From the NCBI GenBank assembly GCA_040386515.1, contig JAZKFG010000002.1, positions 191,716 to 250,297 on the forward strand: DNA of 58,582 bases, in the 5' to 3' direction. The notes under the pieces were generated by a model. It worked only from the letters and a program-made list of their open reading frames with translations. It ran no database searches and was not told where the DNA came from. Shown here piece by piece: positions 17,290-45,446 of this stretch. Origin of the DNA: Patescibacteria group bacterium. GTDB taxonomy: Bacteria > Patescibacteriota > Minisyncoccia > Phycocordibacterales > CAIZLB01. How positions within the stretch are numbered: the stretch's first letter is position 1; each line of letters opens with the position of its first letter. A program made the translations under genes and the position numbers.

Positions 17290-17376
17290 GGAGGATTGGA
17301 TGAGTGGTTTAAATCAACAGTTTACTAAACTGTCGAGCCAGAAATGGTTCCGTGAGTTCGAATCTCACATCCTCCG
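17290..17376 (+). tRNA. Type II tRNA with Ser identity features; anticodon loop TTACTAA gives anticodon ACU
   Basis: Acceptor stem GGAGGAT/ATCCTCC. D arm GAT..ATC with a GG-containing loop. Anticodon stem ACAGT/ACTGT. Long variable arm GAGCC-AGAAAT-GGTTC. T arm GTGAG-TTCGAAT-CTCAC. Discriminator G; no encoded CCA. TGcTATATT (17270-17278) lies 11 nt upstream. Confidence 0.8.
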
Positions 17377-28403: not shown

Positions 28404-29651
<1,248 letters not shown>

Positions 29652-29911
29652 AATAAAAACGACCCCACCTGCATAGTGATCAAACCCGAAGGGATCTAAC
29701 GTATGGGTGAGGCCCTGTGTTTCCACAGTGGGCTGTTAAAGCGCTACTACCGGAGGACCTTTATAATTAAGGTCGACATGCACGGTTTCACTAGGCTTAT
29801 ATAAAACGTACCATATGATTTGCTTAGGTACAATGCATAAAAAATAGCCGTGCATTAATCGCCCCACTCCTGGGATCAATCAACGCACGGCCACATGGCA
29901 AACGTGCCAAC
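29652..29911 (-). ncRNA. Candidate structured ncRNA of unknown class (~260 nt)
   Basis: GC-enriched convergent spacer. On the minus strand there is a cUUCGg hairpin (plus 29685-29693), CUGUG-GAAA-CACAG (29715-29728), GCCGUGC/GCACGGC (29847-53/29885-91), GACCUU/AAGGUC (29756-61/29769-74) and GUACC/GGUAC (29808-12/29827-31). A terminal stem CCUCACC/GGUGGGG is followed by U5AU3. Extended -10 TGaTAGCAT lies at 29918-29926 on the minus strand. Confidence 0.4.
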
Positions 29912-29942
29912 GAATGCATGCTATCACAGATTTCTGAAAATT

Positions 29943-29991
29943 AAAAATACCAAACCCATGCTTGGCTGCGACGTATGGGTTTGGTATTTTT
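29943..29991. terminator. Bidirectional terminator hairpin (17-bp stem) carrying a conserved 21-nt core
   Basis: AAAAATACCAAACCCAT (29943-29959) pairs with ATGGGTTTGGTATTTTT (29975-29991). Abuts the dnaE stop codon. Confidence 0.8.
29957..29977 (+). repeat. 21-nt repeat CATGCTTGGCTGCGACGTATG (copy 1)
   Basis: Exact reverse complement of 46022-46042. In both places it forms the apical part of a hairpin. Confidence 0.85.
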
Positions 29992-32900
29992 AATTTAGCT
30001 TTTGTGCACTCTCAAACACCAAACTCTTTTTATCCTCATGAGGAGAGAATTTACCTTTAAGTACAATACAAGACTCTTCAATAATAACTTTTCTTGCCTC
30101 ATCCACTTGTTTTGGAAATACCACTACTTCAATCTCTCCACTCAAATCTTTCAGTGTAAAAAATATAATCTTTTTAAGTGGATCTTTTTTTGTGGGAATT
30201 TCTTTTACACGTTCCACAATTCCGCCGAGTATATACATTTTTTCAGCAACACCCTCAGCAAGAACTTTTAATACGTCAATATCTCTTTTTTCAAATACTG
30301 ATTTATATTTATCGAGTGGGTGACCAGAGATGTAAAATCCAAGCAAATCTTTTTCCCACAATAATCTTTGCTGTAGTGTTTCTGGTCGCTGTGCAGTAAT
30401 TTCCTTATGTTCTACAATAGCTTCTTCTGCACCTCCAAACATATCAAACAAGTTTCCTTGAGCCGCATCAATTTTTGCATTTGATTTATTGTATTCAAGA
30501 TATTTTTCTAGTCCTTCCAGCAAATCCATTCTATCTCCAAGATCATCCATCGCTCCTGACTTGATCAGGGCTTCAAGAGATTTTCGGTTAAGATTTCTAT
30601 CTTGTATTCTCTCTAAAAAGTTTTCAATACTTGTAAATGCACCATCTTTAGTTCTGTTATCAATAATACTCTGTGCAATTCCTTCACCTAAGTTTTTAAT
30701 ACTGAAAAGTCCAAAACGAATCGCATCTTTTCCAGTTTCTTTATTGTATTCAGGAATAACGGTAAATGTTCCAAAACTTTCATTAATACTTGGCGGAAGA
30801 ATAGTAATACCCATTCGCCGACATTCTTTAATAGAGACAGCCACACCTTCCAGATCTCCTGACTCAGCAGTAAGAACCGCAGTCATATATTCTGATGGGT
30901 AGTTAGCTTTTAAATACGCTGTCACGTATGCAACTCGTCCGTATGATACAGAGTGAGCTTTGTTAAATCCATAGGCTGCAAACGGCTCAATCCATTTCCA
31001 TACATCTGATGCTTTTTTCTCTGACCATTTACTATGTGTTACGCACCCTTTAATAAATTTATCTTTTTGGGCAGCCATTTCTTCTGGAATTTTTTTACCT
31101 ACGGCCTTTCGGAATTTATCAACTTCTCCCCATGAGTATCCTGCAATCTTATGGGCCATCATCAGCAAGTCGTCCTGGTATACAAGAACCCCGTATGTCT
31201 TTTCAAGAATATCTTCGAGCATTGGGTCCATGTATGACACCAGCGTTGGATTATGTTTTCGCTCAATATACATGGGAATAAACTGAATAGGTCCAGGTCG
31301 ATAGAGAGCTACCATGGCGTTAATGTCGTGAATCGTTGTCGGCTTAAGGTCAACTAAATATTTTGTCATTCCATCACCGTTCAACTGGAATAAATCCTGT
31401 GTCTCACCTCGGGCAAGCATTTCAAATGTTTTTTGATCGTCCATCTTTAAGTTGTCAATATCGATGTCAATGCCAAAACGATTTCGAACGAGTTTTTTTG
31501 CTTCGTAAATAATTTTCAAGTTTTTAAGTCCAAGGAAGTCAAACTTTAAAAGTCCTGCCTCTTCAATAGAGTACATGTCGTACTGACTAATAATCTTTTG
31601 TTCACCTTTAGTATCATACTGGAGTGGAGTAAAGTCAGTTAAGGCGGTAGGGGAAATAACCACACCTGCTGCATGCACACCGATATGCCTCGCACACCCC
31701 TCAACTTTTTTGGCCATATCAATAATAGTTCGCACGTCAGGATTTTCCTTGTACAGCGTTTTTAATTCTTCTGTGATTTCAATAGCATGATCAATAGTCA
31801 TTAAAAATCCCTGTGATCCAAGCGGAACAAGTTTTGAAATCTGATCACCGAGCGCATAAGGAAATCCCATGGCACGAGTTACGTCTTTAATAGAACCTTT
31901 GGCGGCCATAGTTCCGAATGTTCCAATCTGGGCCACTTTGTCTGCTCCGTATTTAAATCGAGCATAATCAATAATCTGATCGCGCTTATCATCGGCGTAG
32001 TCCATATCAATATCAGGAGCTGAAGGTCGTTCAGGGTTAAGGAATCGTTCAAAGGGAATTTGAAACTCAAGCGGGTCAATGTTTGTAATACCAGAGAGAT
32101 ATGTCACCATTGATCCAGAAACTGATCCTCGAATGTTTGAAAGGATTTCATTTTTCTTCGCAAAAGCCAAAAGGTCAGACACAATCAAAAAGTAAGGGGA
32201 GTATCCTTTTGTTTTAATAACTTCGAGTTCATATTCAACTCGCTTCAAAACCGCTTCTGTTTTTTCTACGCCTCGTTTTGCAAATCCTTCATACACAACA
32301 TCTCGCAATGCTTCGTCTGCATTTTTTCCTTCAGGCAAATCCATTTTAGGGAATACCCATTTTCCAAGTTCAATAACAAGCTTACACTGACTTGCAATAA
32401 CTTCTGTGTTTGCTAATGCTTCTTTATATATCGCATCTCTGTCGGCATTATTCTCATCAGAAAATAATTCCTCCATTCGAGAAGGTGAGGCAAATGAAAG
32501 ATCTGAATCATCTTCAATCACACGTTCAACATTACTCTGAATAGACATCATAGTTGCCCGAGCTTTTTTATCCTCAGGGTTTATATAAAACACATCGTTT
32601 GTTCCGACTGGCTTTATATTGAATCTTTTTATAAATGCAATAACACGAGCTTCGAGCTTATCGTGGCCAGTAAGCTCATCATGACGAGTTATTTCATAAT
32701 ATAAATCATCACCGTATATATTTTTAAGTTTTTTATATTCTTCAAGTGCAACATCGTCGTCATCAACTTTTAATGCTTCAGAAATTTTACTATTCCAAAA
32801 GGGAATAATGCAAATAAGATCATTCTGATATTTTCCAATAAGCTCATCGTCAATTCTTGGCTTATAGTAGTAACCTTCAATGTTTGAATCTGTTACAAGT

Positions 32901-33208
32901 TTTATAAGATTGAGATATCCTTCGTAATTTTTCGCAAGCAATAAGTGTCGAGTTCTCTTATTGTCCAATCGTCCTTCTTTATCAAAACGCGTTCGAGCTG
33001 CAACATAAAAATCAACACCAAGAATTGGATTTATTCCTTTGGCTGTACATTCTTTGTAAAATTCAATAGCACCGTATAAGTTGCCGTTATCAGTTAAGGC
33101 AAGGGAATCCATACCAAAAGCTTTAGTTTGTTTTACCAATTCGTCTATCTTTGGAACTGCTTGGAGCAGACTATAATGACTGTGCACATGCAAATGGGTA
33201 AAAGGCAT
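29990..33208 (-). CDS. dnaE: DNA polymerase III alpha subunit
   Basis: Trimmed to MPFTHLHVHSHYSLL (PHP domain start) at 33208. TATAAT (minus, 33216-33221) ends 8 nt before it. The 44-codon upstream extension in the track contains a terminator. PHP, palm/fingers and OB regions are all recognisable. Confidence 0.93.
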   Translation of the reverse strand: MPFTHLHVHSHYSLLQAVPKIDELVKQTKAFGMDSLALTDNGNLYGAIEFYKECTAKGINPILGVDFYVAARTRFDKEGRLDNKRTRHLLLAKNYEGYLNLIKLVTDSNIEGYYYKPRIDDELIGKYQNDLICIIPFWNSKISEALKVDDDDVALEEYKKLKNIYGDDLYYEITRHDELTGHDKLEARVIAFIKRFNIKPVGTNDVFYINPEDKKARATMMSIQSNVERVIEDDSDLSFASPSRMEELFSDENNADRDAIYKEALANTEVIASQCKLVIELGKWVFPKMDLPEGKNADEALRDVVYEGFAKRGVEKTEAVLKRVEYELEVIKTKGYSPYFLIVSDLLAFAKKNEILSNIRGSVSGSMVTYLSGITNIDPLEFQIPFERFLNPERPSAPDIDMDYADDKRDQIIDYARFKYGADKVAQIGTFGTMAAKGSIKDVTRAMGFPYALGDQISKLVPLGSQGFLMTIDHAIEITEELKTLYKENPDVRTIIDMAKKVEGCARHIGVHAAGVVISPTALTDFTPLQYDTKGEQKIISQYDMYSIEEAGLLKFDFLGLKNLKIIYEAKKLVRNRFGIDIDIDNLKMDDQKTFEMLARGETQDLFQLNGDGMTKYLVDLKPTTIHDINAMVALYRPGPIQFIPMYIERKHNPTLVSYMDPMLEDILEKTYGVLVYQDDLLMMAHKIAGYSWGEVDKFRKAVGKKIPEEMAAQKDKFIKGCVTHSKWSEKKASDVWKWIEPFAAYGFNKAHSVSYGRVAYVTAYLKANYPSEYMTAVLTAESGDLEGVAVSIKECRRMGITILPPSINESFGTFTVIPEYNKETGKDAIRFGLFSIKNLGEGIAQSIIDNRTKDGAFTSIENFLERIQDRNLNRKSLEALIKSGAMDDLGDRMDLLEGLEKYLEYNKSNAKIDAAQGNLFDMFGGAEEAIVEHKEITAQRPETLQQRLLWEKDLLGFYISGHPLDKYKSVFEKRDIDVLKVLAEGVAEKMYILGGIVERVKEIPTKKDPLKKIIFFTLKDLSGEIEVVVFPKQVDEARKVIIEESCIVLKGKFSPHEDKKSLVFESAQKLN

Positions 33209-33283
33209 GCGTACTATTATACTGCAGGTTGCAAGGGTCTGGGACTGGTGTTTTTGAGTGTTATATTGGTTATATGTGAAAAT

Positions 33284-33322
33284 GAAAAAACCTCGGTTGC
33301 CGCCAGAGTTGGCGGGCCGAGG
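33284..33322 (-). terminator. Rho-independent terminator (GC-rich) for the upstream small membrane-protein genes
   Basis: Minus strand: CCTCGG-CCCGCC-AACTCT-GGCGGC-AA-CCGAGG followed by T6. Confidence 0.8.
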
Positions 33323-33339
33323 TGATAAGAATTGGGACA

Positions 33340-33564
33340 TTAGGATTCTAATTCCTTCATTGCCCTGTTGATGAAAGGTGTGGCGATCACACCGCCAAAG
33401 GTACCGAGGAACATAAGACAGAAAAAGAAAATCCTTGTAAACAGACGGTCAGGAAATTTCTTCATCAATAAACCTCGATGAATCAGAAGGCAGATCAGGA
33501 ATCCGAGAAAACCTGTGATGAAATAAGCTGTAAAAAAGCCTGAATGCTGTAGGAGTGTTTTCAT
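33340..33564 (-). CDS. Small hypothetical membrane protein
   Basis: 74 aa, two TM segments. The start overlaps the upstream stop (ATGA). Confidence 0.4.
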   Translation of the reverse strand: MKTLLQHSGFFTAYFITGFLGFLICLLIHRGLLMKKFPDRLFTRIFFFCLMFLGTFGGVIATPFINRAMKELES

Positions 33565-45385: not shown

Positions 45386-45446
45386 AATTTTAAAACCCTT
45401 CTGCAACAGTCCATCACTAATGTTGCCTCGGGGTTTTAAAATTTTT
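45384..45446 (+). terminator. Long-loop hairpin terminator
   Basis: AAAATTTTAAAACCC (45384-45398) pairs with GGGTTTTAAAATTTT (45431-45445); the loop is ~32 nt. Confidence 0.55.

Follow-up and report, generated by a model that had tools for sequence, protein, structure and literature searches.

GadY of Escherichia coli is a cis-encoded antisense small RNA (sRNA) that lies opposite the 3′ untranslated region (UTR) of gadX. More generally, bacterial sRNA genes combine a sigma-70-type promoter with a Rho-independent terminator, and tandem clusters of 'sibling' sRNAs exist. We describe here a spacer between two convergent genes of a Patescibacteria bacterium. Hardly any regulators are known in this lineage, and a candidate small or antisense RNA would be gained for it if the spacer is transcribed; according to a preprint of 2022 on the TM7x strain (doi 10.1101/2022.03.25.485537), cultured Patescibacteria models had by then yielded no validated small RNA. 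Our tentative reading, to which we give a little less than an even chance, is that the spacer holds a species-specific transcription unit on the minus strand, probably made up of two tandem small RNAs. The weight of this unit on its own is small because it is an orphan without conservation, and it counts for more as a further case, in these genomes, of hairpin-RNA units that vary while the intergenic slot they occupy stays fixed.

The window, that is, the whole 58,582-nucleotide (nt) stretch of DNA analysed, belongs to a genome of 0.80 Mb (G000; 13 contigs, 92.7% complete, GC 0.375). The genes for Tgt (28410–29651, plus strand; PF01702, 443 bits) and DnaE (29990–33340, minus strand; PF07733 and four other domains) converge on an intervening spacer of 338 nt. 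The original prediction had singled out this spacer as unusually long and GC-enriched, and both points are borne out: on a crude gene map of open reading frames (ORFs) of at least 90 amino acids (aa), it falls in the top 7% by length of 780 gaps (median 44 nt) and ranks 10th among 119 convergent gaps, and its GC content (0.447 vs 0.375 for the genome) ranks 14th among the 221 gaps that measure 100 nt or more. A second assembler gives an identical spacer junction: of four runs compared, the contig of the probable source sample alone spans the spacer, and it does so with no differences. The minus-strand ORF at 29409..29726 does lie antisense to tgt, as had been proposed.

The spacer contains three hairpin-plus-U-run elements, named here T1, T2 and T3. 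T1 (29947..29987, both strands; inverted repeat I1) is the dnaE terminator hairpin, with folding energies of −18.3 kcal/mol on the minus strand and −24.4 kcal/mol on the plus strand. It is bidirectional, since a U-run follows the hairpin on both strands, and it is the first terminator-like site 3′ of tgt on the plus strand. T1 shares 78% identity with the T1 of the nearest relative (locus L012), whose Tgt is 90% identical to that of the host. A small 5′ hairpin of 5 bp, UGGCA-CGUU-UGCCA (29896..29909, minus strand), appears in the minimum-energy structure next to T2 (29836..29894, minus strand), a 23-bp hairpin (29894–29844) with the apex CCCA-GGAG-UGGG that is followed by CUAUUUUUUAU. Its energy of −35.0 kcal/mol puts T2 first in stability among the 290 clustered terminator-like hairpins found in the gaps of the genome. 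An AU-rich middle segment of 117 nt (29722..29838, minus strand) with three short hairpins (29831–29808, 29774–29756 and 29728–29715) carries a CCUCC motif and overlaps a 47-codon frame (29879..29736). The last element, T3 (29650..29714, minus strand; −23.8 kcal/mol), is a two-tier terminal hairpin (29714–29661) followed by GUUUUUAUUUU, and its U-run, TTTTATTTT, overlaps the tgt stop codon (29649–29651).

T2 and T3 look like intrinsic terminators because each hairpin precedes a U-run; judged on the predicted folds, both present a stable hairpin directly before a U-run on the putatively transcribed strand. The U-runs of T2 (TTTTTATGC/TATTTTTTA) and of T3 occur on the minus strand only. An automated terminator scan returned T1 alone, T2 and T3 falling outside the loop and stem sizes that it allows. 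At T2 a first short RNA probably has its 3′ end, unless the hairpin acts as an internal terminator. A 10-nt direct repeat, ACCCATACGT, is found on the minus strand at 29699–29708 and at 29971–29980, 272 nt apart, in the 5′ arms of T3 and T1 (by estimate, about 0.08 such repeats would be expected by chance), and a hairpin of the T1 type may have given rise to T3. No tandem repeat was found in the spacer, which is therefore not an array of repeated guide units.

Comparison with shuffled sequences reveals a marked strand asymmetry. The minus strand of 29645–29930 folds at −104.9 kcal/mol (z −5.47), a value reached by 0 of 200 shuffles, whereas the plus strand folds at −76.8 kcal/mol (z −1.42) and is matched by 11 of 200 shuffles; the strand-specific fold anticipated by the original prediction is thus recovered. 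When segments were scored separately (100 shuffles each), the T2 segment (29836–29910) gave a z of −7.96 on the minus strand vs −3.85 on the plus strand, and the T3 segment (29650–29722) −3.67 vs −0.23; the minus-strand fold of the middle segment (29722–29838) is no better than chance (z −0.57; plus strand −2.73). The excess stability of the minus strand is local and stems from the two long, G.U-rich hairpins T2 and T3. G.U pairs account for 6 of the 23 pairs of T2 and 6 of the 22 pairs of T3, and for none of the 15 pairs of the bidirectional T1. On the plus strand the G.U pairs of T2 and T3 become A.C mismatches, and the hairpins are therefore kept at the level of the minus-strand RNA. Selection of the minus-strand structure at the RNA level is supported by these G.U pairs together with the one-strand U-runs.

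All six hairpins named in the original prediction are found at the expected positions. Its description of several stable hairpins applies to the long hairpin (z −7.96) and to the terminal one (z −3.67) but not to those of the middle (z −0.57): GUACC/GGUAC, GACCUU/AAGGUC and part of CUGUG/CACAG are present, yet they fall within the chance-level segment. A cUUCGg tetraloop had also been proposed for the terminal hairpin; in the minimum-energy fold its place is taken by a CUUC loop, closed by a stem of 9 bp of which four are G.U pairs.

The promoter of the putative unit was sought with a −10 matrix derived from 15 tRNA/tmRNA promoter sites of the host, which themselves score 7.5–12.3 bits. The motif TGnTAnnnT occurs within 70 nt upstream of 17 of the 35 tRNA/tmRNA genes called by aragorn, so the 'host type' of extended −10 invoked in the original prediction is real. 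The site chosen there, TGATAGCAT (29918..29926, minus strand), fits this pattern but scores 4.1 bits, a chance-level match (1.5 expected per 340 nt). Among the extended −10 sites of the spacer the highest score is that of TGGTATTTT (29944..29952, minus strand; 10.2 bits, 0.09 expected per 340 nt), which is located inside T1, in its 3′ arm and U-run, and is not conserved in L012 when the alignment is read by eye. In the same by-eye alignment, L012 carries TGATAGAGT, of 9.5 bits, aligned with TGATAGCAT and in the same position after the homologous T1, and the similarity between the two spacers stops at about the aligned −10. The similarity over T1 and the −10 suggests constraint, because four-fold degenerate sites of these genomes are almost saturated (0.44 identity vs 0.36 at saturation). 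A minus-strand promoter after T1 is, from these comparisons, plausible but unproven. Ahead of the second unit no promoter in the range of the host tRNA/tmRNA sites (7.5–12.3 bits) was found; the best match, TGGTACGTT (29805..29813, minus strand; 6.0 bits, 0.39 expected per 340 nt), is a possible weak promoter.

Homologues of the spacer were sought on several scales. No match was obtained by blastn against 40 relatives, and 400 further genomes of the class yielded two short matches (E 0.0014 and 0.0071) that are at chance level for that many genomes. Sensitive blastn and nhmmer searches of 29 tgt loci identified no spacer homologue, the host genome holds no paralogue, and phages and plasmids gave no match. 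Conservation, as would be expected of an sRNA gene, was thus seen neither in the 40 relatives nor in the 400 class genomes or the 29 tgt loci, with the caveat that four-fold sites are near saturation.

What persists among relatives is the position. In loci that reach 1.5 kb past tgt, convergence of tgt and dnaE is kept in 13 of 16 loci from the genus, with spacers of about 20 to 870 nt. Each of the six nearest species (Tgt 76–90% identity) has one to three hairpin-plus-U-run units on the dnaE strand, where the fold z-scores of their spacers range from −2.3 to −9.6. Full TTGAC[AT]-N16-18-TAnnnT promoters are found on the dnaE strand in four of these six spacers and on the tgt strand in none. 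The U-run TTTTTTAT is the only k-mer common to all seven spacers (host and six relatives), and Rfam models applied to the six loci gave two tRNAs above threshold and matched no spacer unit. Within the relatives' spacer units the sole similarity between species is TTTGTTGGTAACGAGGAAC, a 19-nt exact match that opens one unit of L016 and one of L017 (relatives G007 and G015) and may mark the 5′ end of a small RNA conserved between those two species. Among 80 metagenomic neighbours of tgt, L041 and L042 alone are close (Tgt 87–89%) and extend downstream of the gene; the host unit is absent from both, one showing just a T1-like terminator (about 70 nt) and the other a unit of about 60 nt, and the spacer unit is for this reason considered dispensable. 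As far as can be told from sequence, the spacer is a variable slot, occupied in the nearest species by different putative promoter-to-terminator hairpin units or by none, and the differences in length and presence among relatives show gain and loss at this slot. Replacement of a unit and plain divergence of a weakly constrained RNA look alike at this distance, because synonymous sites are near saturation.

The evidence does not favour the single stable RNA of about 260 nt of the original prediction, nor a new conserved class: the terminator-like T2 splits the stretch internally, the middle is not significantly folded and no sequence relative was detected in the collections searched. If the minus strand is instead read as two small RNAs in tandem, the first would be about 75–100 nt long, starting near 29911 (from TGATAGCAT) or near 29937 (from TGGTATTTT) and ending with the U-run of T2 near 29838. 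The second, or a read-through product, would end at T3 near 29652, with a length of about 185 nt, or 260–285 nt in total. On the tgt strand T1 is the sole terminator-like site in the spacer; since tgt has no plus-strand terminator before it, the tgt mRNA would run through about 335 nt of spacer. The minus-strand RNA or RNAs would then be perfectly complementary to the 3′ untranslated tail of the tgt mRNA. Transcription, transcript ends and antisense action are all inferred here, and the likeliest roles would be to control the tgt 3′ end as a cis-acting antisense RNA or to expose it to processing by RNase III, which the host genome encodes, and to shield dnaE from convergent read-through. A trans-acting regulator of the Hfq type would be less likely than these cis roles: Hfq was not found in the host genome, and when trans targets of the middle segment were sought among 793 start regions there was no outlier, 19 of 20 shuffles doing at least as well as the strongest duplex obtained (−27.1 kcal/mol).

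The main rival of the tandem-RNA interpretation is that T1, T2 and T3 form a promoterless terminator array or dnaE 3′ tail, in which T2 and T3 would serve as back-ups against dnaE read-through and the 'RNA' would be only the tail of leaky dnaE transcripts. This account, unlikely but deserving the most attention among the alternatives, agrees with the confinement of all significant structure to hairpin-plus-U-run elements and with the chance-level score of the proposed −10, TGATAGCAT; in L013–L017, moreover, there is no separate T1 after the dnaE stop, and the hairpin of the first unit is itself the first dnaE terminator. It leaves unexplained why back-ups should follow T1, already a good terminator (−18.3 kcal/mol and a U-run), and why 117–180 nt of non-terminator sequence should separate T2 from T3. 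It also fits poorly with the full −35/−10 promoters that lie inside the spacer, on the dnaE strand, in four of the six nearest species, and with the 9.5 bits of the aligned L012 −10. That the spacer is instead a non-functional relic, consisting of pieces of promoter, leader or terminator left over from a cassette that was inserted into a variable slot and then decayed, and functionless whether transcribed or not, we consider improbable. Such a relic would be expected to lack conservation in every collection searched, as is the case here, and to vary in presence, absence and length as widely as the relatives' spacers do (about 20 to 870 nt); by eye, more distant members of the genus also appear to hold ORFs in the slot. 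Against decay of a protein gene, no translated similarity was detected: 20 frame pieces compared with the host genome and 30 loci gave nothing below E 0.08, Pfam searches of six frames gave a best E of 0.19, and the 47-aa frame has no homologue. The twelve G.U pairs on one strand and the intact long stems argue further for current selection at the RNA level.

The same frame raises the question of a small protein gene, of 39–47 codons (29879/29855..29736), with the AGGAG of the T2 loop as its ribosome-binding site and the T2 hairpin masking its start codon. The frame coincides exactly with the middle segment, which folds poorly, AGGAG stands 11 nt ahead of an in-frame ATG, and small ORFs seem, by eye, to be present in other orphan units of the host genome. 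Even so, a protein-coding role seems very improbable: the start codon and Shine–Dalgarno sequence would be buried in a hairpin of −35 kcal/mol, a U-run lies inside the frame, and the predicted peptide has neither homologue nor Pfam family and, by eye, no clear transmembrane helix. A type I toxin–antitoxin locus was considered and rejected on the same properties of the 47-aa frame. An integron attC site was likewise rejected, no match to a core site being seen by eye.

A very divergent housekeeping RNA (6S RNA, SRP RNA or RNase P RNA) is the least probable of the explanations considered and is largely refuted. It is invited by the fact that Rfam models detect neither 6S RNA nor SRP RNA in the genome, yet the region itself contains no Rfam family, even at E values up to 10. 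With the 4227 models of Rfam 15 at gathering thresholds, the sole match in the whole window is a tRNA-Ser (17290–17376), and none falls in the spacer. When E was relaxed to 10, the region gave nine matches, every one of them far below threshold. Seven are on the dnaE terminator, to which that of ohsC_RNA (25.2 bits vs a threshold of 50) is confined; a miRNA model on T2 scores 16.4 bits vs 75 and RsaJ, on the plus strand, 15.1 vs 100. RNase P RNA and tmRNA are located elsewhere, at G000:C2:280035–280385 (94.8 bits) and at C5:141827–142236 (117.3 bits; aragorn agrees), respectively. The host RNase P RNA is a somewhat divergent class A molecule whose score is just below the RF00010 gathering score of 100. 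Models of 6S RNA (RF00013 and relatives) match neither the host genome nor the region, and the candidate can be set apart from 6S RNA by its predicted fold, a series of separate hairpins rather than a rod with a central bubble. Absence from the nearest relatives is a further argument against any housekeeping RNA.

SRP RNA is ruled out because the lineage has no detectable Ffh. SRP RNA models (RF00169 / RF01854) have no match at E up to 10 in the host genome or in the region, and small SRP RNA was found in none of 41 genomes up to the level of the order. The M domain of Ffh (PF02978) and the SRP54 GTPase domain (PF00448) are each missing from all 41 genomes, the latter with two marginal 24-bit matches in 121 genomes of the class. 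With E. coli Ffh as the query, tblastn returned no match below E 1, while the controls TrmD, L19 and GrpE were found and S16 was missed; no FtsY was found either. By these searches the SRP pathway is undetectable in the host genome and its relatives. Such a loss is already in print, in an account that describes two SRP subunits as absent in many CPR bacteria (PMC8080830). The failure of the original prediction to match RNase P RNA, tmRNA, SRP RNA or 6S RNA is therefore upheld by the Rfam models, by the loci found elsewhere and by the missing Ffh, and the comparison with Rfam it had called for returned no family at gathering threshold and nothing relevant at E up to 10. On sequence comparison, the spacer unit belongs to no described family.

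A broader form of the tandem-RNA interpretation is that the dnaE/tgt junction is one of many fixed 'slots' of Patescibacteria that receive species-specific, GC-enriched RNA cassettes, a generalization that we regard as rather unlikely. Each species would carry one to three tandem promoter-to-terminator cassettes behind a positionally conserved promoter. Were this true, the cassettes would constitute an undescribed class of structured RNAs with fast turnover, maybe general in these reduced genomes, and their role might be antisense control, defence or host interaction.

Further orphan promoter-to-terminator units are seen in the host genome, on the plus strand, at G000:C5:79340–79870 and G000:C3:7600–7990, with small ORFs of about 65 and about 56 codons by eye; the C5 unit has a GC content of 0.456 and a TTGACA promoter. 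The genome also contains a family of bidirectional terminator hairpins in which a 15-nt loop, ATTAGTGATGGACTG, is conserved and the stems and A/T-runs vary. Eighteen copies were counted in G000 (none with a reversed-pattern control), one of them in the window at 45405–45423 (G000:C2:237120–237138) and the 17 others at positions such as C2:146792, C2:250626, C3:109656 and C6:15628. Five copies are present in relative G005 and one each in G008 and G022, the other 37 relatives having none. The family may represent a small repeat element, or a motif that is bound by a protein or resembles an uptake signal. A second terminator family, with the loop ATACTCGC[A/C]GACTGGCAT, has four copies (G000:C2:250541, C2:264108, C3:59190 and C11:649); T1 is a diverged member of it, and the T1 elements of L012 and L041 carry CTATACTCGCCGACTGGTATAG.

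Compared with described systems, the unit resembles terminators placed in tandem or bidirectionally at convergent junctions in that three hairpin-plus-U-run elements follow dnaE in series and T1 is bidirectional. It departs from them in that T2 and T3 are unidirectional, G.U-rich and unusually long (22–23 bp), and in that they are 117–180 nt apart with promoter-like sites between them. With sRNA genes in general it shares the succession of a promoter-like site and a hairpin with U-run, a possible tandem organization, and the recurrence of one to three units in the same slot of relatives; unlike the members of sibling sRNA clusters, however, the host units have nothing in common at the sequence level, either among themselves or with the units of relatives, bar the U-run, and, unlike typical sRNA genes, they come with no Hfq found in the host and no target signal. 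In contrast to the GadY type, both transcripts are putative here, and the host unit shows no sequence relation to that type, is unconserved even within the genus and possibly consists of two tandem units. The likeness to GadY lies in a candidate sRNA encoded between convergent genes, with its own intrinsic terminator and with perfect complementarity to the presumed 3′ tail of the neighbouring gene, in a host where RNase III is available. By analogy, the comparison that we favour is with a cis-encoded antisense RNA or an orphan sRNA gene equipped with intrinsic terminators, which the unit would most resemble in the way it works.
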